A stretch of DNA of 64,000 nt, from positions 617,847-681,846 of the forward strand of contig CAWHFX010000002.1 in assembly GCA_963828715.1 (NCBI GenBank), read 5' to 3'. The notes below the pieces were generated by a model. It worked only from the letters and a program-made list of their open reading frames with translations. It made no database searches and was not told where the DNA came from. Below are positions 11,996 through 61,501 of this stretch, piece by piece; position 1 is the first letter of the stretch; every line of letters begins with the position of its first letter. A program made the position numbers and the translations under genes. Source of the stretch: an uncultured beta proteobacterium. Its GTDB lineage: Bacteria; Pseudomonadota; Gammaproteobacteria; Burkholderiales; SG8-41.

Positions 11996-15054
<3,059 letters not shown>

Positions 15055-29363: not shown

Positions 29364-29379
29364 GCGCGAATACCTCCGC

Positions 29380-37845: not shown

Positions 37846-38392
37846 CGGTGGTTCCTTGAATTAACGCGCGATTTTACACGAAGTCACTGATTCGTTGCAG
37901 TTTATCGGCTTACTTATCCTGCGGTGAAACCTGAGCCGAGCGATGTCGGGACTGCAGACCCTCCAGGCTGGCGAAATCTCGTGGGCTCGCATGCGACCGT
38001 AGTCCGATATGAGGCAAGGCGCGCCGCTCCGAGTTCCGCAGACTGCTCACATTCCGATTGCCCACGGTCCGAGTTGTCGTGCGGGCGTGAGCCGGCGCGG
38101 CAGAAAGACGTTTTGAAGCGTCGTTCAGGACGTACTATTTCTGGCCAAGTCTCTGAAAAACTGAGGACAACTTGAAATTGAAGACCGTAACGACGCTTTA
38201 CGAAGCGTCGTTTATGAACACTGCTTCTCGTTGAACTAAACCGCTTCTCGGTGGTTGTCGCACTGCCTGCTGTTCTCTCCGCGCTGGTCGATAGTCGATT
38301 GCCGTTGCTGATCGTGCGGGCCGCGAGGACGCTGGTGCGCCTGTGTCAGGCTGTTTTCGGGAATGTTCCCGAGCTTGATACAGGAGACCGTG

Positions 38393-43258: not shown

Positions 43259-43902
43259 TCGACGCGGGAGAACGTCATGAGCGAGACACGATGCTCCGGC
43301 GCCGCTGCGGACGCCGGGCGCCTGAGGTGCGTCAGCTCGAAGCCTTCCCGCGCGAATTCGTACTCCCAGAAGCGCGGGTAGGCGTGGCCCGCTTCGGTGA
43401 TCACGAGTACGGCGTGGCGCTTCGCGATACGGCAGACATGGTGAATCAGCGGGAACGCCGGATGTACGAGCTCGAACGTGGCGCCGCGCGTATAGACCAG
43501 ATCCACCGGTTCACGGGCAGCGCCGAGGAAATCCTCGAACGAAGCGCGCGTCAGCATCGCGTTTGCGTGCATGTCCGGATAACGGGCAGCCATGTCTCGC
43601 AACGCGCTCTCGCTCCAGTCGACGCCGTGCAGGTTGCGATAACCCTGTCCATGCAGATAGGCGAGATGCCGCCCGACGTTACAACCGAGATCAAGGATCG
43701 CCGCGTTGCGTTCGGGCGCGAGCGCCATGATCTCGTCCATCTGCACCTGGCTCGCTGGATCGATACCTTCGAACGCAGCGGCCGTGGGATGCTTCTCCCA
43801 ATGTTCGCGCGTGCCCGCGCCGCCCTGGCGCCGCACGAGAAACGGCAGGAACGTGCAGGCGAAGCGCCGCGCAAGACGCTGGCGAGAGACTGGCGTCGTC
43901 AC
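43255..43902 (-). CDS. class I SAM-dependent methyltransferase
   Basis: Motif I ILDLGCNVGRHL, then GVDWSESAL. Confidence 0.7.
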   Translation of the reverse strand: MTTPVSRQRLARRFACTFLPFLVRRQGGAGTREHWEKHPTAAAFEGIDPASQVQMDEIMALAPERNAAILDLGCNVGRHLAYLHGQGYRNLHGVDWSESALRDMAARYPDMHANAMLTRASFEDFLGAAREPVDLVYTRGATFELVHPAFPLIHHVCRIAKRHAVLVITEAGHAYPRFWEYEFAREGFELTHLRRPASAAAPEHRVSLMTFSRVE

Positions 43903-43942
43903 GTTCTACTTCTCGCGCGTGCGTGCGCGCTGGATTTTCCGC

Positions 43943-44437
43943 TCATGAGTAAGTCAATGTGAAGAGCACGATCGACGCGAACAGATAGCTCAGCGGATTG
44001 TCCCTGAAGCGTTCCTCGAAATCCAATTTGTAGCCGCGGTACTTGTCCGAGGATTCCATGAACTGTGGCGGCATAGGGTGACGGTGCGTAAACGCAATGC
44101 GCTGCAGCGCGAGGCCATAGGCCGAGCGGAGATGCGCCGGATACGTCATGGGATTGATGCGGCGTTTCGGCAGCACGTCGCGCTCGGGGGCGTCGTCAGT
44201 GATGTATGGAATGATCTGCTCGCGCCAGAATTCGACGGTATAGCGGTTGAAGGTCGCGAGCGAGATCAGGTTTTCGCCCGAGCCGCAGCCGAAGTCGAAA
44301 ATCCGCAAGCGCTCTCCCGGCGGGAGCAATGCGTTGAACGTGTTGAACCGGTTGCGCTGATATCCCGCCGCGTAGTTCGTCTGATGCAGGTTCATGTAGC
44401 GATCAACGATGCTGCGGTAGTACTCGGTGCGGTGCAT
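43943..44437 (-). CDS. hypothetical 164 aa protein with a methyltransferase-like motif I only
   Basis: Coding part of ORF 43943..45061, starting at MHRTEYY. It has IFDFGCGSGENL but lacks later MTase motifs, and ends in a hydrophobic tail LFASIVLFTLTYS. Confidence 0.45.
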   Translation of the reverse strand: MHRTEYYRSIVDRYMNLHQTNYAAGYQRNRFNTFNALLPPGERLRIFDFGCGSGENLISLATFNRYTVEFWREQIIPYITDDAPERDVLPKRRINPMTYPAHLRSAYGLALQRIAFTHRHPMPPQFMESSDKYRGYKLDFEERFRDNPLSYLFASIVLFTLTYS

Positions 44438-44457
44438 AGCCCAGAGTCTCTCGTCGG

Positions 44458-46284
44458 TCAGAGCGGAACGGTGACTCGCGATGGTGTGACTGCCTCCACC
44501 CCTCGCGCACAGATCGGCTCGCCCCGTGCAGCCGCCGCAATCACGGCGGCTGCTTCGTCTTCCGTCTGTATGGTGATGTTCCTGTACTGTCGCGCGGACG
44601 GCCAGTTGGCGCGCCTGAGCGGATCGAGGTAGAAGGCCGGACGCCCGATCGCATGCGCCGCCAGCACGGGCGAGGTGTAAGGGACGCCGAGCGCGACGTC
44701 GCATGCCGCAATGGGCAGATAGGGATCGACGTTCACGTCGATTACGATGATGCGTCCCGCCCGCGCGTGTTCTCCTGAAGGATCGACGAGCTTCTGCAGC
44801 AACTCGGGCGCCGAACGGTAGGCATGACGCATGTCGCGCTTGAGCTTGAGCAGCGCGAAGCAGTCCGGAACGCGCAACAGGAGGCGTTCGATCGCGTGCC
44901 AGAAGGCTACATAGGAGTCGATGTCGATCATGGGCGGGCCACCGCCGAACGTATCGCGCCAGAGATCGTTCATGGGGGGCATGTCGAAGATTGCGACGCA
45001 CGTTCCTGCGGCCGGCAATCCCAGGCGGGATCGTGCCTCGCGCGAATCGAGGTCGAGCCATCTTGCGTCACCACACATGAGCGGGCCGACGGTCCGCACC
45101 TCACAGCGGGCTTCGCCGTCTTCGACCTGTCTCGCAGCGAGCCAGGCCGCATACGCCTCGTTCCACACCCAGAACTCGCGCGCGACGATCACGGAGCGGG
45201 GTACCCCCAGGTCGCGGAAGCTCGCGCTTTCAAGCGCGAAAGTCGGCGAGTTTGCGCTGTACGCCCATATGATCGTCCGGATGCCGCGCGCGCGGGCGAC
45301 CGCGACCTCCGGCTTCTCCGGCCACGAGTGGCTCGTGGACGTAACGTAAACGGCCGCGTGCAACACGTTGAATGCGGCTTCCCAGTAGCGGGCACGTGGA
45401 ATGAGGCGCGCAAGCAAAGGCCCAACCGCCGGAGCACGGAATGCAGCCGCCAGGAAACCGCGCAGCATCGCGGCTGCGACGCGCACGCGTTCGCTGCGAT
45501 CGAGAAGACCGAACGTGTGCTGCGGTTCGACGAGCTGAATGCCGTTGCGCGTGTAATGCGCGCGCTGCGCCGCTGTCGCCCGCGTCGGCGGGAAGAAGAT
45601 CGCATCGCGCGGCGACACGTGGCCGAAGCGCGCGGCCCAGGCGAAATCGAGACGCCCGTCGCGGTCGGCGATCTCCTGAGGGCTGATGCCCAGCCAGACG
45701 AGGCGGCCGCCGATCAACATTCGCGGTGGACTGAACAGGTCGCGCGCGGCGTAACCCAGCTCCCGCGCGAGATGGGCGAGGGAGATGCACCAGTGGTAAA
45801 GCGCTTCGAGGAAGCGGTTCACTGCCGAGTGTTGGATGCGAATGCCCGAGAACATCCGGTCGAGCTCTTCGGGCGTGAACGCGCGTGCGATCCACGGCTC
45901 CACCACACTCGCTGCTGGCGCGTCCGTACGCTGCGATTTCGCGAGCATGGCGGAGAACAGAAACAGGCTCTCGAATTCAGCGCCGAGGAGTTGCCAGACG
46001 TTGCGCGAGAAATCGACGTCGCGATGGCCGATCCGTGCGACGACGCGATGGCGGGACGAAAGAGAAGGAAACGCCTCGCGGCTCCATGCGTCGAACGCGG
46101 CATCGTGCGCGAGCAGCCATTCGTCGCGTGTGAATATGCGGTACGGCCGAACACGTTCGAAGCGGCGCGCAAGCCACGGCGGCAACGCGATGCGCCATGC
46201 GGCCACCGGCCGGCGCAGGCTCAACCACAACGCGTAGAGAAAGTTGGCGGGCGAGATGCGAACGAAGTAGTACGGCTCCGCCAT
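44458..46284 (-). CDS. large uncharacterised polysaccharide-biosynthesis protein (possibly the 'PFTS-motif' family)
   Basis: ORF 44458..46335. The ATG at 46284 (MAEPYYFVRIS) removes the overlap with the upstream gene. GVPYTSPVLAAHAIGRP near the C-terminus resembles the PFTS motif (from memory, unverified). Confidence 0.45.
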   Translation of the reverse strand: MAEPYYFVRISPANFLYALWLSLRRPVAAWRIALPPWLARRFERVRPYRIFTRDEWLLAHDAAFDAWSREAFPSLSSRHRVVARIGHRDVDFSRNVWQLLGAEFESLFLFSAMLAKSQRTDAPAASVVEPWIARAFTPEELDRMFSGIRIQHSAVNRFLEALYHWCISLAHLARELGYAARDLFSPPRMLIGGRLVWLGISPQEIADRDGRLDFAWAARFGHVSPRDAIFFPPTRATAAQRAHYTRNGIQLVEPQHTFGLLDRSERVRVAAAMLRGFLAAAFRAPAVGPLLARLIPRARYWEAAFNVLHAAVYVTSTSHSWPEKPEVAVARARGIRTIIWAYSANSPTFALESASFRDLGVPRSVIVAREFWVWNEAYAAWLAARQVEDGEARCEVRTVGPLMCGDARWLDLDSREARSRLGLPAAGTCVAIFDMPPMNDLWRDTFGGGPPMIDIDSYVAFWHAIERLLLRVPDCFALLKLKRDMRHAYRSAPELLQKLVDPSGEHARAGRIIVIDVNVDPYLPIAACDVALGVPYTSPVLAAHAIGRPAFYLDPLRRANWPSARQYRNITIQTEDEAAAVIAAAARGEPICARGVEAVTPSRVTVPL

Positions 46285-46288
46285 GCGG

Positions 46289-47551
46289 CTAGAGAAAGTT
46301 ATAGCCGCCGCCTTCCATGATGTGCGGATCGGCAAGCGTATTCTTCGAGTTCATGATGAAGCCGCCGCCACCTTTGAACGGCAGGCGCACGGCATCGACG
46401 CCGGGATCGCCCTTGTGGTTGCCGATGTGATCCTTCGGAGCCCATTTGCGCGTCGTGGGATCACGGCCCCAGATACGTTCGTCCCGTAACGGCTCGACCA
46501 GTGCCTCGAACTGATCCTCGGTGATCTTCAGAAAGTCGAGCAGCAGGTCGAGATCGCGTGGACGCCGCGGATCATGCTTTACGACGAGATCGATGGCTTC
46601 TTCGCGCGTGAGCCGGCCGTGGCGGATCTCGGTGCTGGCATCGTCTGTCGCGCGGCCGTATCCGAATTTGAGGTATTTGAGATAGTCGTGAACGCCGTTG
46701 GCGTGCACGTCGTCGAGCTTGTCGTAGATGTTGAAGGTCCGATCACGCTCGCGCGCGGTCTCGAAGTCGTATTCGCGGATCATCTGCTCGCACTGCGCCT
46801 TCGCGTTCCAGGAGATGTAGTTGCTGAGATAGATCCCGCGTAAGCCCACCTCTTCGATCTCTTCGTCGCTCGGGTAGAAGAAAGGCGCCAGATCGCGCAG
46901 CTCGAACGGCGAATCGGGCTGGTTCAGCAGATCCTCCGGCTCGAAGCCGCGCATGTCGTGTTCCTGCCTCTTCTTCTTGGTGAACTCGACCATGTCGTCC
47001 TGATTGAACATGCCGGTGAGCTCGGAAAATCCTTCCTCGCCCCAGATCATGAGTGGAATTTTGAATTTCACGGCGATCTGGATCGGGAACGTCATGATGC
47101 CGGCGTGATAGTGCCAGGTGACGTCGCCGATCTTTTCCAGCATGTAGCGCGAGATCCGGCGTGCCGAGTCCGGATTCGTCGAGAAGCGGATCAGGTCGCA
47201 ACTGAACTTGCGGAACATGTTTTCGAGGTTCCGCAGGCCGACCTTCGTGTTGTACAGGTGGTTGTAGGTGACGAACAGCGGGTTCATGCCGTACTTCACC
47301 TTCATGAGGTACGCCTGGTAATGGCTGTCCTTGCCGCCGCTCACCGGAATGATGCAGTCGTATGGATTGCGCGCGGCCTTCGCTTTGCTCTTGTATTCAT
47401 CGAGAAGCTCGACGAGCCAGCGTTCGCGCTCGGCCCAGTCGATCGAGGGCCTGCTCTCGACCACGCGGCACCCGCTGCAGACGCCCTGTTCGTCGAAGAT
47501 GATGCTGGGCTGCGCGTTTTCGGGATAGCAGCATCGCTGGCAATATCTCAA
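46289..47551 (-). CDS. N-acetyl sugar amidotransferase (PP-loop ATPase; WbuX/PseA/LfnA type)
   Basis: MRYCQRCCYPENA...CSGC zinc ribbon, PP-loop IPVSGGKDS and FKIPLMIWGEEG. Confidence 0.85.
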   Translation of the reverse strand: MRYCQRCCYPENAQPSIIFDEQGVCSGCRVVESRPSIDWAERERWLVELLDEYKSKAKAARNPYDCIIPVSGGKDSHYQAYLMKVKYGMNPLFVTYNHLYNTKVGLRNLENMFRKFSCDLIRFSTNPDSARRISRYMLEKIGDVTWHYHAGIMTFPIQIAVKFKIPLMIWGEEGFSELTGMFNQDDMVEFTKKKRQEHDMRGFEPEDLLNQPDSPFELRDLAPFFYPSDEEIEEVGLRGIYLSNYISWNAKAQCEQMIREYDFETARERDRTFNIYDKLDDVHANGVHDYLKYLKFGYGRATDDASTEIRHGRLTREEAIDLVVKHDPRRPRDLDLLLDFLKITEDQFEALVEPLRDERIWGRDPTTRKWAPKDHIGNHKGDPGVDAVRLPFKGGGGFIMNSKNTLADPHIMEGGGYNFL

Positions 47552-47587
47552 TTCAAGCTCCTGTCTTCGCCGGCTTCAACGCAATAA

Positions 47588-48397
47588 TCAATAGTGTTTG
47601 TAGCGCGGCCGGCGCGGGATCGAGACACGATAGAAGAAGGTGTCTCTGACATCCACGCCCGCGTTGCGCAGATACTCTTTCGCTTTTTTCGTGCTGTGCT
47701 CGGTGAAGTGAAAGATGTTGCCCGCCGACACCGCGTCCGCGCCCCCTTCGGTGACGCCCGCAACCATATGCGACCAATGACCGACGCCGCCGAATGCAAT
47801 CACCGGCACGCTTACGGCCGCCGAGACGCTCTTCATGAGCGGGAGATCGTATCCTTTACGCATGCCGTCGTGATCGATCGAGGTCAGCAGGATCTCTCCG
47901 GCGCCTGCATCCACGGCGCGCTTTGCCCATTCGACCGCGGTGACGCCGGTCGACTCTTGTCCACGATCGATCCATACGATCGGCGCGCCATCGGCATCGC
48001 GCTTCACATCGATCGAAACGACGACGCATTGCGAGCCGAACACCTTCGCCGCTTCCGTAACGAAGGCGGGATTGCGGAACGCATGCGTGTTCACCGTGAT
48101 CTTGTCGGCGCCGTGCTCGAGCAGCGTTTCGATCTCGGGGATCGACGTGATCCAGCCGCCCACGGCGAGCGGCACGAAACAGCGTTCGGAAAGCTCGTCT
48201 ACGATATCCAGGAACTCTTCGCGGCCGGTGTGCTCGCGCGAGACGTCGAGGATCAGGATCTCGTCGACCGCCCACCCGTTGAAGAAATCGACGGCGGTAA
48301 TGACGTTGCCGATGACGTTCGTGTGCCTGAACTGCACACTCTGGACGATGCGGCCGTCACGTACGAGCAGCGACGGGATCAGGCGTTTTTTCAGCAT
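47588..48397 (-). CDS. HisF-like cyclase subunit of the acetamidino-modification system (AglZ/HisF2/WbuZ type)
   Basis: ORF 47588..48418, preferred ATG at 48397 (MLKKRLIPSLLVRDGRIVQSV). DEILILDV, GAGEILLTSIDHDGMRKGYD and IAFGGVG. Confidence 0.85.
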   Translation of the reverse strand: MLKKRLIPSLLVRDGRIVQSVQFRHTNVIGNVITAVDFFNGWAVDEILILDVSREHTGREEFLDIVDELSERCFVPLAVGGWITSIPEIETLLEHGADKITVNTHAFRNPAFVTEAAKVFGSQCVVVSIDVKRDADGAPIVWIDRGQESTGVTAVEWAKRAVDAGAGEILLTSIDHDGMRKGYDLPLMKSVSAAVSVPVIAFGGVGHWSHMVAGVTEGGADAVSAGNIFHFTEHSTKKAKEYLRNAGVDVRDTFFYRVSIPRRPRYKHY

Positions 48398-49025
48398 GCG
48401 CGCGGGCGTAATCGGCAAAATTCTTGAGGATCGCGAGACCGGCGCCCTGACTTTTCTCCGGGTGGAACTGCACGCCGAAAATATGTCCGCGCTGAACGGC
48501 GGCTACAACGGGCATGCCATGCTCGGTCGTCGCGACGACACACGGGGCGGATGTAGTGGCAGGCGAGAAATGGTAGCCGTGCAGGAAATAGACGGCGGTG
48601 CCCGGGGTCACGTCGCGAACGAGCGGCGACGCCGCGTCCACGATCTCGAGCTCGTTCCAGCCCATGTGCGGCACCTTGAGGCTCGCGTCGCCGGGTGTGA
48701 GGCGCTCGACGTCGCCCGCAATCCAGTCGAAGCCGGCATGCTCGCCGTGCTCGAAGCTGCGGGTTGCGAGGAACTGCATGCCGAGACAGACGCCGAGGTA
48801 AGGCGTCCGCCGCTCGACGACCTGCTCGCGCAAGGCATCCACGAGTCCGCGCCGCTCGAGTGCGCGCATGCCGTCCCCGAACGCGCCGACGCCGGGCAGG
48901 ATGATCGCGGTCGCGCGCGAGACCACCGCCGGATCGCCCGACACTTCGTGCGCGATTCCGAGCGCCTTGAGCGCGTTCGACATGGATTTGAGATTGCCCA
49001 TGTCGTAATCGATGACGACGAACAT
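48357..49025 (-). CDS. HisH-like glutamine amidotransferase subunit (WbuY type)
   Basis: In ORF 48357..49136, ATG at 49025 (MFVVIDYDMGNL). IILPGVGAFG, GVCLGMQ (nucleophile Cys) and GVQFHPEKS. Confidence 0.85.
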   Translation of the reverse strand: MFVVIDYDMGNLKSMSNALKALGIAHEVSGDPAVVSRATAIILPGVGAFGDGMRALERRGLVDALREQVVERRTPYLGVCLGMQFLATRSFEHGEHAGFDWIAGDVERLTPGDASLKVPHMGWNELEIVDAASPLVRDVTPGTAVYFLHGYHFSPATTSAPCVVATTEHGMPVVAAVQRGHIFGVQFHPEKSQGAGLAILKNFADYARAHAEKTPDPVAART

Positions 49026-49045
49026 TGGCCGCGTCCAGGGCCGCC

Positions 49046-49306
49046 CTATGCGGCCGCGTGCTCCACGAGATACGCGGCCAGATTGTCCACCTTGAGGAGT
49101 CCGCGTGCGTCGATTTCCTCGTCGGCTATTTTGCATCCGAACCGTTCTTCGACCAGCAGCACGAACTTGATGACGTCGAGCGAATCGAGGCCGAGGTCCT
49201 GCGTGAGATGCTTGTCACGGATGCTCGAAGCCGACGCGGACTTCAGCTTGTCGTCCACTTCGTGCAGGAGCTGCGCGATTTTTTCGTACGTTGCGGCGGA
49301 ATCCAC
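49046..49306 (-). CDS. acyl carrier protein
   Basis: DLGLDSLDVIKF phosphopantetheine attachment motif. The start is uncertain: GTG at 49306 or GTG at 49354. Confidence 0.8.
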   Translation of the reverse strand: MDSAATYEKIAQLLHEVDDKLKSASASSIRDKHLTQDLGLDSLDVIKFVLLVEERFGCKIADEEIDARGLLKVDNLAAYLVEHAAA

Positions 49307-49317
49307 GGAGACATGTC

Positions 49318-50271
49318 TCAGGTTGCACAGAGTTCGAGAACGTTCGTCGCCCACGACAGCCCGACGCCGAACCCGGAAATCAGTATCCGGCGAGGGCGCT
49401 CATCCAGCAGCGGCTCGAGCGCAATCGGGATCGTGGAGCCGACGGTATTGCCGCCGTCGGCCACGTCGATCACGACTTTGCCCGGGGGCAGCTTCATGCG
49501 GTCGCGCAGCGACTCCAGCATGAAGCGATTCGCCTGGTGGAACACGAAGCGGTCGATGTCATCCAGTTTGAGCCCGTTCAACGCGAGACACTGCTCGACG
49601 TGTCGCGGGACCCTGGACATCGCGAACGAATAAATCGCGCGTCCGTCCATGAACAGCTTGCTGTGCTCGGACGGCGCGCGCGAGCCGCCGGATTTTACTA
49701 TAAGCGCTCCGGCGCCGCCGCCGTCGGTCCCGAAGACGGCTTTACCGGGGCGATACAGCGGCTGCTCGGTGAGGAGTGTCGCCGCCGCCGCGTCGCTGAA
49801 GAGCGGCGCGGTCGCGCGGTCGGTCTCGTCCATCACCTTGCTGTAGCAATCGGCCGTGATGAGCAGGGCCCGCGTGTGGCCGTCTTGCCCCAGGAACGGC
49901 GCGACGGCGGACAGCCCGTATACGTAGCCCGAGCAGCCGAGGCTCATGTCGAAGCTCGCGACCGAAGCCGGGAGGCCGAGCCTCTTCTGGACCAGCGCCG
50001 CCGTGTGCGGAAGCTGGTAATCGGGCGTTTGCGACACCACCACGAGCGCACCGATTTCCTGCGCCGGTACACCCGTCTTCTCCAGCAGCGCACAGGCCGC
50101 TTCCGTAGCGAGGTCGGAGGTGGCCTGATCGTCCGCCGCGACATAACGCGTCGCGATGCCGAGTTTTTCGCGCACGAAGGACGCGTCGAAGCCGCGCTGC
50201 ACGCCGTCGGCCACGTTGTCGATGCGCCTGCGCCCGTAGGCGTGCGCGATGGCCGAGATTCCAATTGTCAC
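49318..50271 (-). CDS. 3-oxoacyl-ACP synthase III (FabH-like KASIII)
   Basis: C-terminal third of the artefactual 778 aa ORF. The GTG at 50271 overlaps the upstream stop (GTGA). Catalytic triad contexts are SLGCSGYVYG, FHQAN and GNTVGSTIP. Confidence 0.85.
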   Translation of the reverse strand: MTIGISAIAHAYGRRRIDNVADGVQRGFDASFVREKLGIATRYVAADDQATSDLATEAACALLEKTGVPAQEIGALVVVSQTPDYQLPHTAALVQKRLGLPASVASFDMSLGCSGYVYGLSAVAPFLGQDGHTRALLITADCYSKVMDETDRATAPLFSDAAAATLLTEQPLYRPGKAVFGTDGGGAGALIVKSGGSRAPSEHSKLFMDGRAIYSFAMSRVPRHVEQCLALNGLKLDDIDRFVFHQANRFMLESLRDRMKLPPGKVVIDVADGGNTVGSTIPIALEPLLDERPRRILISGFGVGLSWATNVLELCAT

Positions 50272-50922
50272 GCGTGCTCCTTCACGGCCGGCGCGATCTC
50301 GAAGCAGACCATGAGCGAGGTTGGGGCGCCAGCGAGCGCCGTATACGTTAGTCGGTTGATCGTGAGAACGCCGTTGCCCGTCTTGCGCGTGATGAGATTC
50401 TTCGCTTCCAGCGTGCCGCTGAATGCCGTGTCCGCCGGCGGGACCGCCCAATTCTCCAGGTATCCAAAGCGTACGACCGCAGGTTCGCTTCCGCCCACGG
50501 TGAGCTCGTGGAAGCGCTTGTTTGCCTCGATCGTCGCGCGCACCAGATCCTTGCGGTTCGCCGGTGCGATCCGGCACATTCCGCCGAACGCCTTCGCGCG
50601 CGACATCCGAAACCGCATAGCTTACGTGTTCACGCCGACGTACTGGGGCGCCGTCCTCCGCAAAGAATCCATGACAGAGCGCACCGTCCACCGTCGCGAC
50701 GAATGTGGCATTCGCGGCATCGAGCTCACGGTCGGCGCGCGCTTCGTGTCCCAGCACGAGTCGCCCGTTCGATGTCGCGGTCCGCTGCAGCTTGAGACGT
50801 TTGACCATGACAGCCGCGCCCGGAAGTCGCTCTGCCGCGTCCAGGAACGCATCGAGTATCGACGTTCCGTGAATGTAATCGCGCGTGCCGAGAAATGGAA
50901 AATCGGTGCGGACTTCGATCAT
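50268..50922 (-). pseudogene. unknown-function gene 'X' (~217 aa) with its reading frame broken once (one extra base near 50576-50620)
   Basis: The start MIEVRTDFPFLGTRDYIHGTSILDAF... (ATG 50922, 4-nt overlap with the GNAT stop) is in one frame. The end ...CRIAPANRKDLVRATIEANKRFHELTVGG...CFEIAPAVKEHA (ORF 50268..50618, stop overlapping the KASIII GTG) is in another. Both ends are translationally coupled to their neighbours. Confidence 0.55.
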
Positions 50923-51654
50923 GCGAGCCGCAGGCGCGAGTAATGATCGTCTATGGTTGTCGCAAGCACTTTCTGCAACTTCTGTTCGAGGCTTTCCCCG
51001 GGCAGGTCCCGGATGAGCGCCATGATCCGGTCCTGCCCCGGCCAGAGACGTCCGCCGCGCACGCACTTCAACGCGAGATAGTCTTCGAGCAGGCAGCCGG
51101 AAACCATCAGATCGTGAGGTCCGATGGCCTTTGCGGAAGGCTTTGCGCATGATGCCTTCCATTTTGTAGCCGAACAGGATCTGCCAGCGCTGCCAGTCCT
51201 TGAGCGCCGTCGACTGGTACGAATTGATGCGCTCGAGGCCGACCGTGTCGAATGCGTGCTCGGTCATGAGGCATTTCGCTTCCATGCCGTAGAAGCTGCT
51301 CTTGAATGTCTCCGAGCGCTTCGCGACGATCATCGCGAAATCGGCCTGCCGCGTCACATGAGAAATCCTGGACAGAGAACAGATGCCGACCACACGATCT
51401 TCGTTCTTCGGCTTGATCATGAGCGCGATGCGGGACTGTGTGCTGCGCAATTCGGCGAGGAACGCCTCCTGCTGCACGGCAGAGGTCGGGTACATGCCCT
51501 GTTCCATGTTGCGCGTGAGCGTCTGGTCGTTGAGCCACGTGTGCCACCGATCGACATGGATCGCGCGCTCGTTGGGCAGCACGAGGTCGACGAGCTCGCC
51601 CGCGAGAAACATGTCGTAATGCGGAGCGCTCGAAGGTGCGGTTGCTTCGGTCAT
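50919..51654 (-). pseudogene. GNAT (RimJ/RimL-type) N-acyltransferase with its reading frame broken once (one extra base near 51117-51135)
   Basis: The N-terminal ~176 aa (…GMEAKCLMTEHAFDTVGLERINSYQST...GYKMEGIMRKAFRKG) are in the 51654 frame. The expected continuation PHDLMVSGCLLEDYLAL...SRLRLA is in ORF 50919..51107. Confidence 0.65.
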
Positions 51655-52742
51655 CCGTTCGTCTCCCGACGTGCGTTGTCGTCGACCAGATCCCAGGTCA
51701 TGGGTGTGCCCCGCTCAACCTTGCGCGTCACGCGCTTCCCGAGCAGCGCGTCCATGTGCTTCGGCGCGAGCCCGAGACCGGGCCGTATCGCGCGCAGGTT
51801 ACGTTGCGTCAGCGTGTCTCCGGGCTCGAGGTCCTCGACCACGTACAGAGAGCGCCGGAACTGGAGCGATGTGCGCTCCGCTTCCGTGGGGCCATAACGC
51901 ACATCACCGAGCGCGAGCCACGCCCGCTCGCTCTCCGCCACGAGCGTTTTCAGCTCGTCGGGTTCCAGCGAGAACGCGGAATCCACGCCGCCGTCGGCCC
52001 GGCTCAGCGTGAAATGCTTTTCGATCACGCTTGCGCCGAGTGCGACCGCGGCAACGGCCACACCGATGCCGCCGGTGTGGTCCGAAAGGCCTGCCTCGCA
52101 CGAGAACGCTTCGCGCAGTGCCTCGATCGTCCGCAGGTTCGTGTTTTCCGGAGAAGCCGGATACGTACTCGTGCATTTGAGCAGCACGAGGTCGCGGCAG
52201 CCGGCCCTGCGCGCTTCGCTCACGCTTTCCTCGAGCTCCGCCCGCGTCGCCATGCCGGTCGAGATGATCATCGGTTTCCCGGTCGCCGCGACTCTGCGGA
52301 TCAGCGGAATGTCGGTGTTTTCGAAGGAGGCGATCTTGTAGCACGGCACGTCGAGCTGCTCCAGAAAATCGACCGCGCTCGCGTCGAACGGCGCGCTGAA
52401 GCCGATCAACCCGCGGGCGCGGCAGCGCTCGAAAATCGGCGCGTGCCATTCCCACGGTGTGTGCGCCTCGTCGTAGAGATCGTGAAGGCTGCGTCCGCGC
52501 CACAGGCTGCCGGCGTCGTCGATACGGAACTCACCACGATCGACATCGATCGTCATCGTGTCCGCGGTGTAGGTCTGGATCTTCACCGCATGTGCGCCGG
52601 CATCGGCGGCTGCATCCACGATGGCCAGGGCGCGGTCGAGCGAACGGTTGTGGTTGCCCGACATCTCCGCCACGACGAACGGTCTTGCGTCGCGGGCGAT
52701 GCGCCTGCCGCCGATGGTGACCGCGGTATCGCGCTTATCCAT
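51651..52742 (-). CDS. pseI: pseudaminic acid synthase
   Basis: In ORF 51651..52877, ATG at 52742. PFVVAEMSGNHNRSLDRALAIVDAAADAGAHAVKIQTYTADTMT...YKIASFENTDIPLI...GLSDHTGGIGVAVAAVALGA plus a C-terminal SAF domain. Confidence 0.88.
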   Translation of the reverse strand: MDKRDTAVTIGGRRIARDARPFVVAEMSGNHNRSLDRALAIVDAAADAGAHAVKIQTYTADTMTIDVDRGEFRIDDAGSLWRGRSLHDLYDEAHTPWEWHAPIFERCRARGLIGFSAPFDASAVDFLEQLDVPCYKIASFENTDIPLIRRVAATGKPMIISTGMATRAELEESVSEARRAGCRDLVLLKCTSTYPASPENTNLRTIEALREAFSCEAGLSDHTGGIGVAVAAVALGASVIEKHFTLSRADGGVDSAFSLEPDELKTLVAESERAWLALGDVRYGPTEAERTSLQFRRSLYVVEDLEPGDTLTQRNLRAIRPGLGLAPKHMDALLGKRVTRKVERGTPMTWDLVDDNARRETNG

Positions 52743-52744
52743 CT

Positions 52745-54280
52745 CTATAGCTCGAGCGTCCAGATCTCGCGCACCCGTCTGTAACCGGCATTGCTGAACG
52801 CACGCAGCGACGCCACGTTCTCGCGGTGAATCTCGGCGTGCACGCGAGACGCATTCGGGCGGTGCTCCCGCAGCCACTGCGTGCCGGCGCGAAGGAGCGC
52901 AGTGCCGAGGCCGCGCCCAGCTTCTTCGGGCACCATGTATACGGAGGCGGTCGCTTCATCTCCCGCCATATCATAGCGCAGCACTCCGACCGGCCGGCCC
53001 GCAGCCTCACCGACGAGCAGCACGACGTCGGGCTCGCGCAGCACGCGTTCAAACCAGCGCCGGTGCTCGGTGAGCGCGATGGCTTGCGTGCTGTTCGAGT
53101 AGCGGCGCGTGCTCTCCGCGTTGCGCCAGGCGTATATTGCCTCGCAGTCGGACGTTTGCGCCGTCCGCAGGGAAATCGGTGCAGGCAGCATGCACGCGGC
53201 CGCACGCCGCGCGCCGAGACCATCGGTAAGCGCGGCGGCTCGCGCCGCAAGCGCCGAGAGAAGCGATGGGGTACCCGCCAGGGCGCGCAGATGAGCGCTC
53301 AGTGTCTCGGCACGCCAGTCTGTCGCGGCGCCGAGATAGATGCACGCCCGATCCGCTGCAAGATCGACCGCGACGACGTGCTGGTTTTCCGCGACGCTCA
53401 CGACGATCGCCGGCACGCCGACGGCCGCACGTTCCCAGTTCATCACGCCGCTCGCACCGATCGCAAGGTCCGCCTGTACCATGAGACCGGCCATGCGTGT
53501 CACGTCGAAATGTACCTGCCAGCCAGCCTGCCGGCAGCGCTGCTCGATCTCGGTCCGGTCTGGATGGTCGCCCGAGACGACAACGTCCGCCGATAGGCCA
53601 TCGAGCCCGGCCTGTTCGAGCGCCCGCAGCGCGCGCAGTGTCTGCCGCATGCCGTCGAAACCGCCGAAACACACGAATACACGCCGCAAGCGCCCGTCGC
53701 GCTCCGCGCTCCTTCCGCGCGCCTGCGCGAACTCCTCGCGCAGCAGCGCGAACCGCGGCCCGAGCAGGCGCTCGGCGTGCGCCGGCATACGCGCGTGGTA
53801 TCGCGTTTGCGCGTCGAGAAAAAAGTTCTGGTCCAGCAGCGCATCGCACACGTGATCGCGGTCGGCCAGATCGTCGATGACGAGAATGCGCCCGACGTGC
53901 GGCTGAACGATGCGTTCCCAGCGCGCATCCAGCGCGTAGTGATCGACGATCAGCCAGTCGGGACGGTCGCCTGCACGCAGCACCGCGGCTGTCTGGGCCG
54001 CGTCCAGTTGCTGCGGCACCGGCAGCCACGCGGCGTGTGCGAGCGGCGGGCTCCCGTCCGGCTCGAAATCGGCGGCGGGCGTGGGAACGGTTTCGAGGGC
54101 GTGCACGGGTACGCGCAGGGGCGTGACGAGAAGCTCGCGAACCCGCTCCGGAAGTCCGCGCGAGGCAAGCTCGATGCGCGCGCCGCGTTCCTTCAGTGCA
54201 TGCGCAAGCGCCATGCAGCGCGCAAGGTGTCCGCCGCCCATGGCGGCGGACGCATCACAGCGAATCACCACACGCGTCAT
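52745..54280 (-). CDS. pseG: bifunctional PseG (UDP-sugar hydrolase) / PseH (GNAT N-acetyltransferase) fusion
   Basis: N-terminal MTRVVIRCDASAAMGGGHLARCMALAHAL (PseG). C-terminal ~160 aa GNAT (ISLRTAQTSDCEAIYAWRN...GRGLGTALL...ENVASLRAFSNAGY). Confidence 0.85.
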   Translation of the reverse strand: MTRVVIRCDASAAMGGGHLARCMALAHALKERGARIELASRGLPERVRELLVTPLRVPVHALETVPTPAADFEPDGSPPLAHAAWLPVPQQLDAAQTAAVLRAGDRPDWLIVDHYALDARWERIVQPHVGRILVIDDLADRDHVCDALLDQNFFLDAQTRYHARMPAHAERLLGPRFALLREEFAQARGRSAERDGRLRRVFVCFGGFDGMRQTLRALRALEQAGLDGLSADVVVSGDHPDRTEIEQRCRQAGWQVHFDVTRMAGLMVQADLAIGASGVMNWERAAVGVPAIVVSVAENQHVVAVDLAADRACIYLGAATDWRAETLSAHLRALAGTPSLLSALAARAAALTDGLGARRAAACMLPAPISLRTAQTSDCEAIYAWRNAESTRRYSNSTQAIALTEHRRWFERVLREPDVVLLVGEAAGRPVGVLRYDMAGDEATASVYMVPEEAGRGLGTALLRAGTQWLREHRPNASRVHAEIHRENVASLRAFSNAGYRRVREIWTLEL

Positions 54281-55575
54281 TCAGCGGACCCGGAAGACCG
54301 GCTGTATCGGCGGTCCGAGAAGCCGTTTTCCGATGTCGCCGGCGTCGAGCGCTTCACGCACCGCGGTACACGCTTCCCGCTGGGCGCGGTCGAGCTGAGC
54401 AAGGTCGCTTTCGCCGTGCGCATAGCACATGTTGTACGAGCCTGCCGTCAGGATGCCGCGTCCGATCAGTTCCTGGAGAAAGAGCGACTTCACCTGCGCT
54501 GCCGTCGCTCCGGCGGCATCCCTGAACTGCATCAGGCTCCAGCTCGGTTTGCCGCAGATCGCGATCGCCGCGGAAAGCCCATTCCGCTCCACATTGGCGC
54601 GCGTCAATGCGATCACGCGCTCTCCCATCGCGTTCAGCTTCTCGTGCACCGGTTCGCGCTGCATCTTGCGTACGGTCGCGAGCGAGGCGGCAAGGCTCAC
54701 CGTTTCACCCCCGAACGTGCTCGAAAAGAAAATCTCTTCCATCTCGGCCATGTAACGCGCGCGCCCCACCACGGCGGAAATGGGAAAGCCGTTGCCCATG
54801 CTCTTGCCGAACGTTGCAAGGTCGGGAACGACGTCGAACAGCGTCTGGGCGCCGCCGATGTGGTAGCGGAAACCGGTGATGATCTCGTCGAGGATGAAAA
54901 GGGCGCCGTACTCGTGCGCGAGATCGCGAACAGCCTGCAGGTAGCCCTCCCGCGGCTCTTCCGCGTTCATCGCCTCCATCATCACCGCGGCGAACTCGCC
55001 CTTGCGGCTTTCGAGCGTGTTGCGCAGCGCGTCGAGATCGTTGTATGGAAATTTGTGCGTCAGATCGCCGACGACCGCCGGTACCCCTTTGTTGCGCGTG
55101 GTGGCGCCGATGTACCAGTCCTGCCAGCCGTGATAGCCGCATACGGCGACGCGATCGCGACCGGTGTAGGCGCGTGCGATGCGGATCGCCCCGACTCGTC
55201 GCGTCGCTGCCGTTCTTGCCGAAGCGAACCATTTCCGCGCACGGAATGAGCTCGCATAGCAACTCGGCCAGCTCGATTTCGAGCTCGGTCGCGAGACTGA
55301 ACGTGACGCCACGCTTGAGCTGAGCGGTGACGGCTTCGGTGACGTCGGGGTCATCGTAGCCGAGGATCACCGGCAGGAGGCCGTTCACGAAGTCGACGTA
55401 TTCGTTGCCGTCCACGTCCCATACATGGCTGCCGCGTCCGTGGCTCAGAAAGAGCGGCGCGGCGTTCGCCGGATACACGATGCGGCTCTTGCTGAAGGTC
55501 TGCGCTGCCGAGCGGAATGACGCGCTCCGCGCGTTCCAGCAGCGCTCGGCTTTTCTGGTATCGATCGGGCTTCAC
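54281..55575 (-). pseudogene. class-III (glutamate-1-semialdehyde aminomutase-like) aminotransferase with its reading frame broken twice
   Basis: Three consecutive frames carry one protein: MKPDRYQKSRALLERAERVIPLGS (from 55575); QTFSKSRIVYPANAAPLFLSHGRGSHVWDVDGNEYVDF...FGKNGSDATS (ORF 54705..55478); AIRIARAYTGRDRVAVCGYHGWQDWY...STFGGETVSL... (ORF 54281..55354). The shifts lie near 55500-55506 and at the C4/G4 run 55189-55192. Confidence 0.75.
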
Positions 55576-56591
55576 GCGTTTGCGCTCACGTAGGTTGGCC
55601 GCTTTGCCGTCCCGCCCGCGCGCGCAGATTCGAGTGCGGCGAGCGCGACGCTGAGAACGTCGGCTGCGTCGGCGGCGGATAGCAGTGGGGTCGTGCCCGG
55701 TTCCTCGATTTCGCGCAGGAACGCACGCATGAGGTCCTGATAGGGCTTCGCCGTATCGACCTTCGTCACCTCGTCAATTGTCTTCCACGTCCCGCCGTCC
55801 AGCGGAAAAAAACGTACGGAGCAATGCTCCGGGTCCTTGCCGTCGCTGTGCCACGCGAGCACCCCATGCGTGCCGATGATCTCGCAGCCGCGGCTCTTGC
55901 GCGGCCTCAGATAGTCGAGCTCGGCGGACGCCCGCGTGCCTGCGGCATGTTCGATCGAGAGCAGCGCGTGGTCCTCGACATCGATATCGAGGGCCGAGAG
56001 CTTCTCCGCGCGGCAGGTCACGTTCGCGACTTTACCGAAGAGCCAGGTGAGATAGTCGATCTCGTGCACGGCGTCGAGCACGACGCCGCCACCTTCGGCA
56101 CGGCGTGCGGCGTAAAGCGCGCGGTAATCGCGTCCGGGTCGCATCGACGGAAGGAAATTGCCCACGTGTGCGCGCGCGAAAAGGGGCGTGCCGACGCGGG
56201 GGAGCGATCGTTTCAACGCCGCGGGGCCGGGATGGAAACGCATGTTGCAGACGACGTAGGCCCGACGACCACGCGCATTCGCAGCATCGAGAAACTCGCG
56301 CACGCCGTCGAGATCGTGCGACAGCGGCTTTTCGACGAGAACATCCGCGCCGGCCTCGATGGCGCGCTTTGCGAGCGCCACATGCGAGCGATGAGGGGTC
56401 GCGACGACGACGGCCCGCGGTCCCCACGCCAGCGCCTCCTCGAGGGTCGCGAAGGCGATCGCTCCGGCAGCAGCTGCGCAGGTCCGTGCGTTCTCGGCAA
56501 TGCTGTCCGTGACAGCAACCGTGGCGAGCGAAGAAGCATTCTGCGCATGCCGCGTGCCGATAGAGCCGCAGCCCACGACCAGCACCTTCAT
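55572..56591 (-). CDS. Gfo/Idh/MocA-family NAD(P)-dependent oxidoreductase
   Basis: In ORF 55572..56807. ATG at 56591 (4-nt overlap with the pseF stop). MKVLVVGCGSIGTRH and VLVEKPL. Confidence 0.8.
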   Translation of the reverse strand: MKVLVVGCGSIGTRHAQNASSLATVAVTDSIAENARTCAAAAGAIAFATLEEALAWGPRAVVVATPHRSHVALAKRAIEAGADVLVEKPLSHDLDGVREFLDAANARGRRAYVVCNMRFHPGPAALKRSLPRVGTPLFARAHVGNFLPSMRPGRDYRALYAARRAEGGGVVLDAVHEIDYLTWLFGKVANVTCRAEKLSALDIDVEDHALLSIEHAAGTRASAELDYLRPRKSRGCEIIGTHGVLAWHSDGKDPEHCSVRFFPLDGGTWKTIDEVTKVDTAKPYQDLMRAFLREIEEPGTTPLLSAADAADVLSVALAALESARAGGTAKRPTYVSANA

Positions 56592-57274
56592 GCCGCGCGC
56601 CTCTGTGCGAGTGCGCGTGCAAGCTCCAGATCGGCCGGCTCGTCGATGTCGATCGAGCGCTCGCGCGGCATCACGTGACCGCGCAGGCGTGAGCCGTAGA
56701 ACGTGCGCTCGGCGCGAAATCCGCTCACGGTCACGAAGTACGTACTCCCGTTGTCGACCAGAAGCTGCGGCGTTTCCTGCGAACGCAGGTTGATGAACTC
56801 GGGCCACATCGGCGCAAGGAATCCATCCTCACGGGCGCGCAGCGCCTGCAGCGGCGGCAGCGGATACGTCGTCACCGCCATTGCGAAATCGCAGACGTCG
56901 GGTTCGAGCAGCGCGCGCGTCCGGCGGACGTCCTCGGCGTTGCGCATGGGGGCGGTCGCGAGCAGACACCCCAGCACGTCCCACTGCTGGCCCGCCGACT
57001 CTTGGTCAGCGAGAAAACCGAGGCAGACATCAGTGAGACGCGCCGTGTCGCTGGCGAGCGTGGAGGCGCGCACGTGCACTTCAGCGCCAGCGTGGCGAGC
57101 GATCTCCGCGATCTCTTCATCTTCCGTCGACACCACGACGCGGGAGAAGACACCGCTTTCAGCTGCCGCGTCGATGCTGTAGGCAATGATCGGTCGCCCG
57201 AGGAACTCGATGACGTTCTTGCGCGGCAGGCGCTTCGAGCCGCCGCGTGCCGGAATCACGCAGACTGCGCGCAT
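56588..57274 (-). CDS. pseF: acylneuraminate (pseudaminic acid) cytidylyltransferase
   Basis: VCVIPARGGSKRLPRKN at the N-terminus; 228 aa, CMP-NeuAc synthetase family. Confidence 0.85.
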   Translation of the reverse strand: MRAVCVIPARGGSKRLPRKNVIEFLGRPIIAYSIDAAAESGVFSRVVVSTEDEEIAEIARHAGAEVHVRASTLASDTARLTDVCLGFLADQESAGQQWDVLGCLLATAPMRNAEDVRRTRALLEPDVCDFAMAVTTYPLPPLQALRAREDGFLAPMWPEFINLRSQETPQLLVDNGSTYFVTVSGFRAERTFYGSRLRGHVMPRERSIDIDEPADLELARALAQRRAA

Positions 57275-58350
57275 CAGTTCGCCTTCACGGCGAGGTCTCC
57301 GTGTCGGACGATCTCGCCCGCTTGCAGGTCGCGGACGAAGGCAGACCCGAGATAAACCTCGATCTGGTCGGGTGCGACGCCGTAGCCGGGCCGCCGGAAC
57401 TCGATCGCATCCATATCGAGCACGTCGCCTTTGCGTACTGCACGCTTCACGTGCGCGCTGCGGCGAATGGCGGTGCGCTTCTCCAGCTCCGTATCAGAGA
57501 GTTGCTTGCGCGTGGAGCCCAGTGCGATTTCCAGATCGCGCACGGCACGCACGAATGCGGCCATGTCCGCGGGCTCGAGCGAGAACATATGCTCGACGCT
57601 GCGCGTCATGCGGTCATGCGTGATCGTCTTCTCGACCATGTTCGCGCCCAGCGCGATTGCGGCGATGTCCATGTCCCGGCCGGGCGTGTGATCGGAGTAG
57701 GCGATGGGAAGACCGAACATCGTCTTGAGCGTGGAGATGATGCGCAGGTTGATGCTTTCCAGCCGGGCGGGATAGCCGGACGGACAATGGTGAATCACGA
57801 CGTGTTCGTTGCCGGCGCGTCGGATTACGTCCACGGCGGCTTCTACTTCACCGATGGTCGCATTGCCGGTGTCGATCTGGATGGAGGGCAGGCGTCGGGC
57901 CGCGTGAACGATGAGCGGATAGTGATTGACGTCCGCGGACGCGATCTTCACGGAGTCGCATCCGATCGCCTGCAGAAATTCGACTTCGTCCGGGAAACCG
58001 ACCGTCGCGAAGAATGCGAGTCCCAGGCTGTCGCAATAGTTCTTGAGCTTGCGCCACTCCGATTGCGGCATGCTGCGCCGGCAGAGAATGTCGTAAAGGG
58101 GCTCGGATACCGTCTCGGTGCGCGCGGATGCGCGGTCTGCGAGGACGTCGTACGAGAAGAGCTGTTTGCGGTCGGCGACCAGGCGATCGGGATCGAGGAT
58201 CTGGTACTTGACCGCGTCCGCGCCCGCTTCGGCTGCGAGCCGCGCGAGATCGATTGCCATGTCGAGTCCGTCGTGAGTGGGACCCGCTTCGTAAACGATG
58301 AAGCAGGGCGCTCCGTCCCCGACCGTGCGTTTACCGATTGAAAATCCCAC
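57274..58350 (-). CDS. second NeuB-family (sialic-acid-synthase-like) aldolase, divergent subfamily
   Basis: 358 aa. PCFIVYEAGPTHDG (instead of SGNHNG), ADAVKYQ, VKIASADV, AYSDHTPG and a C-terminal SAF-like domain (RSAHVKRAVRKGDVL). Confidence 0.75.
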   Translation of the reverse strand: MGFSIGKRTVGDGAPCFIVYEAGPTHDGLDMAIDLARLAAEAGADAVKYQILDPDRLVADRKQLFSYDVLADRASARTETVSEPLYDILCRRSMPQSEWRKLKNYCDSLGLAFFATVGFPDEVEFLQAIGCDSVKIASADVNHYPLIVHAARRLPSIQIDTGNATIGEVEAAVDVIRRAGNEHVVIHHCPSGYPARLESINLRIISTLKTMFGLPIAYSDHTPGRDMDIAAIALGANMVEKTITHDRMTRSVEHMFSLEPADMAAFVRAVRDLEIALGSTRKQLSDTELEKRTAIRRSAHVKRAVRKGDVLDMDAIEFRRPGYGVAPDQIEVYLGSAFVRDLQAGEIVRHGDLAVKAN

Positions 58351-61458: not shown

Positions 61459-61501
61459 CAGTACCTTCAGGCGGCGTTACCTCGTGCGGCGGGGTATCGC
61501 G

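Follow-up and report, generated by a model that had tools for sequence, protein, structure and literature searches.

A 64,000-nucleotide (nt) stretch of an uncultured betaproteobacterial genome (Burkholderiales, SG8-41; assembly GCA_963828715.1, contig CAWHFX010000002.1, positions 617,847 to 681,846; hereafter the window) carries a pseudaminic acid (Pse) biosynthesis cluster in which four adjacent genes encode a GNAT-family acyltransferase, a protein that we call X, a ketoacyl-acyl carrier protein synthase III (KASIII), and an acyl carrier protein (ACP). By analogy with characterized systems, we consider it somewhat probable that GNAT-X-KASIII-ACP is a transferable cassette whose products N-acylate an amino sugar of the pseudaminic (nonulosonic) acid pathway in an ACP-dependent manner, with X as a malonyl loader or decarboxylase. 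ACP-dependent sugar N-acylation is an established logic; what is new is the four-gene cassette and the X protein family.

The cassette genes lie on the minus strand in the order pseI, GNAT, X, KASIII, ACP, hisH, hisF, WbuX (Table 1). Stop and start codons overlap as ATGA at the pseI/GNAT and GNAT/X junctions and as GTGA at the X/KASIII junction, and pseI, GNAT, X, and KASIII are translationally coupled at these points. KASIII and ACP are spaced by 11 nt, and the GTG start of ACP matches both residue 1 of the ACP at the related locus L001 and the junction sequence. A mechanical list of open reading frames (ORFs) gave a single 778-aa ORF at 49318-51654, an artifact of stop-poor frames in 63% GC DNA, which we split into GNAT, X, and KASIII by three-frame translation and comparison with relatives. 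Translation, junctions, and hidden Markov model (HMM) scores agreed with the first-pass annotation, which had placed four coupled genes between pseI and the acetamidino module. NCBIfam equivalog cut-offs were passed by PseB (533.5 bits, cut-off 407.75), PseC (500.3 bits, cut-off 423.5), PseG, and PseI, while PseF fell slightly under its cut-off (187.4 vs 205.7 bits). PseG is fused to a PseH-like domain (residues 374-504) that scored 42 bits against the PseH model (cut-off 93). The hisH and hisF genes were 80-86% identical to L001 genes with GATase and His_biosynth domains.

We compared about 25 loci, divided into tier 1 (X at least 35% identical) and tier 2 (GNAT 43-53% identical). More than 15 independent contigs shared the order GNAT-X-KASIII-ACP; they came from Burkholderiales, other Betaproteobacteria, Bacteroidetes, Dehalococcoidia, Desulfobacteraceae, and further groups, and we judge this recurrence to be far beyond chance. 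A PseI-type NeuB was encoded directly upstream of GNAT in nearly all loci. This co-occurrence with pse genes, with order and PseI-type neighbor both kept across phyla, upheld the earlier proposal that the four genes form one functional module tied to Pse synthesis. Tier 1 loci came from metagenome-assembled genomes (MAGs) of Burkholderiales and other Betaproteobacteria, a Bacteroidetes MAG, a Dehalococcoidia MAG, and soil and groundwater contigs, and had the order PseI-GNAT-X-KASIII-ACP-hisH-hisF(-WbuX); on the longer contigs the whole cluster from pseB to the ABC transporter was syntenic with the window. Tier 2 loci, including a Desulfobacteraceae contig, had NeuB/PseI-GNAT-X-KASIII-ACP followed by a PFTS-motif protein or other genes. 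The adjacency to the acetamidino module on which the first-pass annotation had remarked therefore holds for the window and tier 1 and is not a general tie, as the more distant cassettes lacked hisH, hisF, and WbuX. Even at L014, where X was only ~22% identical, GNAT-X-KASIII-ACP stood in a nonulosonic acid locus. The setting was always amino-sugar or polysaccharide biosynthesis in the loci examined.

Variant loci distinguished the core of the cassette from its exchangeable part. In all loci examined, X was accompanied by an ACP and, save for two loci that lack it, by a KASIII of this clade. At L026 (5408-10662) the order was LpxD-like left-handed beta-helix protein, hydroxymethylglutaryl (HMG)-CoA-synthase-like protein, MaoC/HadB-like protein, X, KASIII, ACP, and PIG-L, adjoining NeuB, PseG/H, Gfo, and aminotransferase genes. 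The LpxD-like enzyme stood in the place of GNAT (200 bits, cut-off 207), and the gene content suggests, as the product of this locus, a nonulosonic acid that bears a branched C6 N-acyl group (HMG or methylglutaconyl-type). L028 (7702-10844) and the P0202 locus had KASIII-ACP-X followed by a ~390-aa protein without a Pfam match, in polysaccharide loci with no NeuB visible; in the P0202 locus, genes for DegT and a FemAB-like enzyme were additionally close by. The ~390-aa protein is a candidate for a further, as yet unannotated acyltransferase. One locus of this pair was from a Candidatus Binatia MAG. In L003 (10645-10922) and L023 (718-808), X was followed directly by ACP without KASIII; L003 kept GNAT, and the short L023 contig ended before the GNAT position. 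The X-ACP gap of L003 consisted of about 275 bp of GC-rich, repeat-like non-coding DNA. Because the trio stays while the neighboring transferase changes among loci, X, KASIII, and ACP are the conserved core, with an exchangeable acyltransferase (GNAT, LpxD-like, possibly FemAB-like). At L027 (6653-12631), the cassette of a nonulosonic acid locus was flanked by insertion sequence/transposase (rve) genes and its GNAT was split into two ORFs, which hints at cassette mobility and decay.

The first-pass annotation had left X unassignable. Searches of Pfam, NCBIfam, and PDB sequences with the single sequence and with profiles of 42 and 101 sequences indeed returned nothing beyond chance. A protein search of 5.8 billion sequences yielded 42 relatives, all of ~215 aa and none with a Pfam domain, and a HMMER scan of 1.84 billion cluster representatives yielded 219 family representatives (E <= 1e-3), nearly all stand-alone proteins of about 200-245 aa and the remainder shorter fragments. 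All X clusters that we looked up were from metagenomes or MAGs. A genome scan of 185,579 species found three distinct true X loci, all in MAGs, and two spurious short matches (L008 and L009). The structure search did give an assignment. The AlphaFold2 (AF2) model from the 42-sequence alignment was confident (predicted local distance difference test, pLDDT, 94.1; predicted TM score, pTM, 0.89) and had two repeats of a helix wrapped by a sheet. Its Foldseek matches in the PDB were exclusively double hot-dog proteins, namely dehydratase (DH) domains of trans-acyltransferase (AT) and cis-AT polyketide synthases (PKSs), TesB, and FatA/FatB (E ~1e-5, template modeling (TM) score ~0.5, 5-16% identity), with a Foldseek probability of 1.00 against DH domains 5e1v, 3kg8, and 6mbh. 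Given the confident model and these matches, without a sequence match to any family, we assign X to a new sequence family of compact double hot-dog proteins.

Conservation across the X family falls on polar residues. R14 (100%), Y16 (89-100%), and H18 (usual) all stand just before the first central helix, with Y16 three residues ahead of it. An N52-G53 hairpin, N175, T187, and N189 were also conserved, and the second central helix carried an E-A-N134-K135-x-x-H motif (N134 95%, K135 97%, H138). Such residues are better suited to a charged substrate, malonyl or CoA, than to a fatty chain. H18 was replaced by Asn in P0036 (from L001), P0164, P0166, and P0172; several of these belong to complete cassettes, and L001 is fully syntenic. 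None of 101 family members matched PF09500, the family of MadA/MadB, at E <= 0.01.

KASIII matched PF08545 ACP_syn_III (64.7 bits) and PF08541 ACP_syn_III_C (82 bits), both over the cut-offs, and had 60 FabH-type PDB matches, the best being 3gwa (210 bits). Its Cys (GCSG), His (HQAN), and Asn (GNT) aligned with the triad columns of 3gwa and with those of E. coli FabH, and the triad was kept in 8/8 cassette KASIIIs compared. Scores fell under the housekeeping FabH cut-offs (PRK09352, 240.3 bits vs 249; TIGR00747, 195.7 bits vs 292), and all of the 120 nearest homologs were from metagenomes or MAGs, several of them on contigs equal in length to contigs that carry X. On these scores the cassette KASIII is a divergent dedicated clade and not the housekeeping FabH. 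The ACP matched PF00550 PP-binding (32.2 bits, cut-off 20.8) and carries the DSL phosphopantetheine serine (DLGLDSLDVIKF); NCBIfam ACP models gave at most 43 bits, all under their cut-offs. The intact KASIII triad and the ACP motif reported from the sequence alone were thus both verified by alignment and HMM.

GNAT matched Pfam Acetyltransf_3 (32 bits, cut-off 25.4), and the only NCBIfam model that it matched was PseH (TIGR03585; 24.7 bits, cut-off 93.1). The AF2 model (pLDDT 91.8) contained a conserved three-helix C-terminal extension (residues 189-242), and Foldseek retrieved SpeG, RimJ, and RimL-like enzymes (E ~1e-12), in line with the RimL-type assignment made earlier. Relatives of GNAT were 59-96% identical to it in tier 1 loci and 43-53% in those of tier 2. 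The amine-acylating SpeG/RimL fold and weak PseH resemblance both favor an N-acylation role.

We infer the catalytic steps, the acceptor amine, and the acyl identity as follows. X, KASIII, and ACP would form a self-contained short acyl-ACP factory. X would load malonyl from malonyl-CoA onto ACP, decarboxylate malonyl-ACP to acetyl-ACP, or both, and KASIII would condense an acetyl primer with malonyl-ACP to acetoacetyl-ACP. The C4 unit could be used unchanged or could first be reduced by an enzyme from outside the cassette. GNAT would then transfer the acyl group from ACP to an amino group, the likeliest acceptor being the 4-amino group of UDP-4-amino-4,6-dideoxy-beta-L-AltNAc, which becomes N7 of Pse and is the position normally acetylated by PseH. 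With the PseC product as acceptor and GNAT in the role of PseH, the PseI variant that travels with the cassette would be explained. In this lineage, WbuX with HisH and HisF would afterward convert the remaining N-acetyl group to acetamidino. The strongest indirect support for acyl-ACP as the donor is the LpxD-like replacement in L026. X is placed upstream of KASIII because X, and not a ketoreductase, is the most constant partner of KASIII and ACP, and a dehydratase would need a ketoreductase. A loader or decarboxylase also fits better than a dehydratase because L003 and L023 keep X and ACP without KASIII and because L026 already has a MaoC-type dehydratase, with an HMG-synthase-like gene beside X as LnmM is found with LnmK and LnmL. 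Finally, the conserved Arg, Tyr, and Asn suit malonyl or CoA, and LnmK and MadA/MadB offer precedents by analogy.

The first-pass annotation had envisaged a 3-hydroxybutyryl product, with the Gfo/Idh/MocA enzyme as a possible beta-ketoacyl reductase. Neither idea was supported. The Gfo/Idh/MocA enzyme lies outside the conserved unit, is absent from several cassette loci, and was ruled out as the cassette ketoreductase, as it co-varies with the class III aminotransferase and not with the cassette. The cassette itself contains no ketoreductase, and in Acinetobacter the loci tied to Pse5Ac7(3-hydroxybutanoyl) are described as having psaA-F alone (PMC11494974), so the known 3-hydroxybutanoyl route does not need such a cassette. 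The Gfo/Idh/MocA-aminotransferase pair was conserved in tier 1 loci and L026. It resembles a module that oxidises and then transaminates and that could supply a third amino group, and this extra amine would be an alternative acceptor for GNAT. In L013 and L014 the class III aminotransferase was paired with a YafV-like omega-amidase in place of Gfo/Idh/MocA, and the aminotransferase ortholog of L001 scored 443 bits against PRK06209.

Other readings of X and of the module were weighed against a loader or decarboxylase. X could be a FabZ- or PKS-DH-type dehydratase or hydratase: KASIII would make acetoacetyl-ACP, housekeeping FabG would reduce it, X would give crotonyl-ACP (or act in the reverse, hydrating direction), and GNAT would transfer an enoyl or 3-hydroxy C4 group. 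The best Foldseek matches of X were indeed PKS dehydratase domains (5e1v, CurJ, GphF, and the ambruticin DH), and H18 before the first central helix with E-A-N-K-[R/Q] on the second recalls the His and D/ExxxQ/H of double hot-dog dehydratases. Yet the His is not invariant, and its replacement by Asn in orthologs from complete cassettes argues against a classical His-based dehydratase mechanism. With no ketoreductase in the conserved core, the cassette alone would supply no substrate; X is retained in KASIII-less loci; L026 has its own MaoC/HadB-like dehydratase beside X; and when the X profile was aligned to E. coli FabZ with hhalign, nothing emerged (probability 0.2%). We regard a dehydratase as unlikely. 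The hot-dog fold would also accommodate an acyl-ACP thioesterase or an editing hydrolase, releasing product or clearing mis-primed ACP while GNAT used acyl-CoA independently. TesB, FatA/FatB, and the bacterial acyl-ACP thioesterase 2own were among the Foldseek matches (TM 0.43-0.54 for FatA/FatB-type enzymes), and 1/101 family members weakly matched an Acyl-ACP_TE domain (PF20791 Acyl-ACP_TE_C, E = 3e-4). Release of a free acid, however, would leave the adjacent acyltransferase without an activated donor, as the cassette has no ligase, and an editing enzyme would not be expected as the most constant partner of KASIII and ACP over ~220 family representatives and three architectures. A hydrolase therefore seems to us improbable.

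It is less probable still that the module serves lipid synthesis with no bearing on sugar N-acylation, such as the making of an anchor or primer lipid for a polysaccharide exported by an ABC transporter. The ABC transporter and methyltransferases of the locus are typical of ABC-dependent glycan export, and genes of fatty-acid type that occur in flagellin glycosylation islands have been interpreted as marks of 'liposugars' (PMC7874193, PMC4875605). The cassette nevertheless has only a priming KASIII, with no elongating KAS I/II, reductases, or enoyl reductase; it stands beside PseI/NeuB in most loci, amid amino-sugar genes (DegT, PIG-L, PseG); and the transferase beside it is one that acylates amines, a GNAT or an LpxD-like N-acyltransferase.

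The state of the cassette in this particular genome is a separate matter, since GNAT and X are both frameshifted in the window. An environmental contig (L015) was 99.5% identical to the window over 14,847 nt (window 42271-57117) and a second (L010) was 98% identical over 3 kb, and GNAT and X were intact in both. A GC3 (GC at third codon positions) frame plot was too noisy to place the frameshifts, and we used the alignment to these near-identical contigs instead. The alignment to L015 showed 71 substitutions and exactly four indels, all of them single-base insertions on the window side: two in the aminotransferase (55503 and 55193), one in GNAT (~51119), and one in X (50603). None lies inside a run of its own base, although the GNAT insertion adjoins a single identical C. 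The other twelve genes of the aligned stretch read through intact, as did housekeeping genes checked elsewhere in the window. Synonymous/non-synonymous substitutions against L015 were 1/1 in GNAT, 0/1 in X, and 13/4 in the aminotransferase. The absence of excess non-synonymous changes means that the inactivation is very recent or that the insertions are assembly errors; either the cassette was freshly inactivated in this strain or the sequence is mis-assembled. The joint frameshifting of aminotransferase, GNAT, and X is suggestive of a functional link, though not conclusive. We hold evenly balanced the view that in this genome the module is a dead remnant, with GNAT, X, and the class III aminotransferase as pseudogenes in a strain that makes only N-acetyl or acetamidino Pse. 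That all the indels in 14.8 kb fall in three genes, outside runs of their own base and amid intact housekeeping and cluster genes, favors it; the lack of excess non-synonymous changes and the intact KASIII and ACP speak against it. It concerns the state of one strain and is compatible with ACP-dependent N-acylation by the cassette as such. The first-pass annotation had asked whether GNAT and X are dead in all relatives; they are not, as both are intact in close and distant relatives alike.

Among the closest precedents for X is LnmK of leinamycin biosynthesis, a double hot-dog acyltransferase/decarboxylase that makes propionyl-ACP for an HMG synthase, with Tyr62 as acyl acceptor and Phe65 stabilizing the enolate (PMC11350588). 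As with LnmK-LnmL-LnmM, the cassette sets a double hot-dog gene beside a dedicated ACP and a thiolase-fold condensing enzyme, and in L026 an HMG-CoA-synthase-like gene accompanies X-KASIII-ACP. X also has a (nearly) invariant Tyr before the first central helix plus the conserved Arg and Asn, the place of the Tyr being comparable to that of Tyr62. The settings differ, as LnmK acts in a trans-AT PKS and X occurs in amino-sugar biosynthesis, and X is smaller, about 215 aa against about 320 aa for LnmK. X has no detectable sequence similarity to LnmK, nor to MadB (PF09500), FabZ, or any PDB entry, and LnmK was outside the top 50 Foldseek matches of X, which were led by PKS dehydratase domains and thioesterases at TM ~0.5.

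These last two differences weigh against X as a loader or decarboxylase in an N-acylation cassette, and several other points do so too. GNATs usually take acyl-CoA, and the use of ACP by the cassette GNAT is a prediction. Two of the four cassette genes (GNAT and X) are frameshifted in this window, and every cassette carrier is uncultured. FabD could load the ACP, and a dedicated loader is thus not strictly required. A 3-hydroxy product would need outside help, as the cassette has no ketoreductase, and the PseH-like domain already present in the PseG fusion means that the acceptor amine may differ from the one proposed.

MadA is a GNAT fused to an Asn-dependent hot-dog malonyl-ACP decarboxylase, and acetyl-ACP is the preferred donor for GlmU N-acetylation (PMC8666670). 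MadA (YiiD) and the cassette both partner a hot-dog protein with a GNAT, by fusion in MadA and by translational coupling in the cassette; MadA and MadB are, in contrast, single hot dogs of PF09500 that dimerise and have no dedicated KASIII or ACP alongside. LpxD is the textbook case of an N-acyltransferase that takes acyl-ACP and acts on a UDP-amino sugar; as with LpxD/LpxA, the acyl group in the cassette pathway would pass from an acyl-ACP to a UDP-sugar amine, and an LpxD-like enzyme replaces GNAT in L026. LpxD differs in being a left-handed beta-helix that uses housekeeping AcpP and long 3-hydroxyacyl chains, whereas the cassette has a GNAT, a private ACP, and a single priming condensing enzyme. 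Further cases of ACP-dependent sugar N-acylation are Vibrio cholerae O1 RfbK-O, NodF/E/A, and tunicamycin TunC/TunK. PseH, like the cassette GNAT, is a GNAT encoded in a pse locus, but the cassette GNAT scores far below the PseH cut-off, has the three-helix C-terminal extension, and coexists with a separate PseH-like domain on PseG. Aeromonas and enterobacterial flagellin glycosylation islands have ACP-FabG-AMP-ligase-LuxE-LuxC among pse genes (PMC7874193, PMC4875605). They share with the cassette a dedicated ACP and fatty-acid-type genes amid pse genes, with presumed glycan decoration; they differ in having a ligase, a reductase, and LuxE/LuxC where the cassette has KASIII, a hot dog, and GNAT, in lacking an X homolog, and in belonging to cultured pathogens. 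Vibrio cholerae O1 RfbK-O can be grouped with these islands. No GNAT/hot-dog/KASIII/ACP cassette is described in the literature that we consulted on Campylobacter Cj1298-Cj1304/fabH2, Tannerella Pse5Am7Gra, and 3-hydroxybutanoyl-Pse genes. C. jejuni 11168 presumably has acpP2, fabH2, and acpP3 near Cj1298.

The N-acyl groups that pseudaminic and legionaminic acids carry influence antigenicity, recognition by antibodies, and the specificity of enzymes. Few of the genes that put on groups besides acetyl have been identified, a gap acknowledged for acetimidoyl and glyceroyl (PMC5378307). The cassette is a portable four-gene candidate for one non-acetyl N-acyl route, compact and widespread in uncultured bacteria. 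If X is a hot-dog loader/decarboxylase, the rare LnmK-type chemistry would have a second and far smaller representative, and X would offer glycoengineering a compact means of producing short acyl-ACPs and tailored nonulosonic acids. A bolder and more doubtful extension is that X founds a family of compact (~215 aa) double hot-dog malonyl-CoA:ACP acyltransferase/decarboxylases, and that X-KASIII-ACP is a FabD-independent three-protein 'minimal polyketide synthase' that is plugged into amino-sugar pathways across phyla with interchangeable transferases (GNAT, LpxD-like, possibly FemAB-like) to give non-acetyl N-acyl products. The product in this lineage would then be an undescribed Pse with an acetamidino group and a C4 keto- or hydroxy-acyl group, the acyl group possibly on a third amino group made by the Gfo/Idh/MocA enzyme and the aminotransferase.

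Table 1 Features of the Pse cluster and surrounding polysaccharide region, in window coordinates.
Feature	Coordinates	Strand	Remarks
ACP	49306-49046	minus	GTG start, 86 aa
KASIII	50271-49318	minus	GTG to TGA, 317 aa
X	50922-50268	minus	ATG to TGA, ~217 aa; 1-nt insertion ~50603
GNAT	51654-50919	minus	ATG to TGA, ~244 aa; 1-nt insertion ~51119
pseI, pseudaminic acid synthase	51651..52742	minus	TIGR03586 PseI, 501.9 bits (cut-off 340.25)
pseG fused to PseH-like GNAT domain	52745..54280	minus	TIGR03590 PseG, 256.9 bits (cut-off 153.55)
HemL-like class III aminotransferase	54284-55560	minus	1-nt insertions at 55503 and 55193
Gfo/Idh/MocA oxidoreductase	55575-56591	minus	Gfo Pfam domains
Acetamidino module (hisH, hisF, WbuX)	46289..49025	minus	
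hisH	49025-48357	minus	
hisF	48418-47588	minus	
WbuX-type N-acetyl sugar amidotransferase	47551-46289	minus	TIGR03573, 350.1 bits (cut-off 203.2)
WbpM/PglF-like dehydratase	27456-29399		GT4 and GT2 glycosyltransferases and FkbM methyltransferase in the same region
Radical SAM/SPASM protein	36715-37860		
ORF without family	39438-40487		350 aa
ABC exporter	41486-43258		
RmlD-like reductase	60556-61476		
Second DegT aminotransferase	61520-62545		

The pse cluster forms the distal part of a surface-polysaccharide region of ~40 kb (window 23000-62600). A second NeuB paralog (57277-58350, minus strand) was ~33% identical to pseI and scored 256 bits against NeuB and 210 bits against PseI, both under the NCBIfam cut-offs. 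It was kept between pseC and pseF in L001, L003, and L007, and the remote loci L011, L013, and L027 also carried two NeuB genes. The pse locus of the window may produce two distinct nonulosonic acids. A 'PFTS motif' polysaccharide biosynthesis protein (TIGR04417; 44461-46335, minus strand; 72.6 bits, cut-off 100) followed the acetamidino genes in the window and stood directly after the cassette in L011 (10760-12397) and L014 (9915-11480); it may be a transferase or polymerase for the modified nonulosonic acid. A ~252-aa protein without a Pfam or NCBIfam match was encoded beside NeuB or the cassette in L011 (1759-2517), L013 (2163-2921), and L014 (6468-7229). Away from the polysaccharide region, the ATP synthase genes stood in an unusual order: atpA (11996-13537, plus strand) was followed directly by atpD (about 13654-15054), no gene for the gamma subunit intervened, and none for epsilon was obvious downstream.

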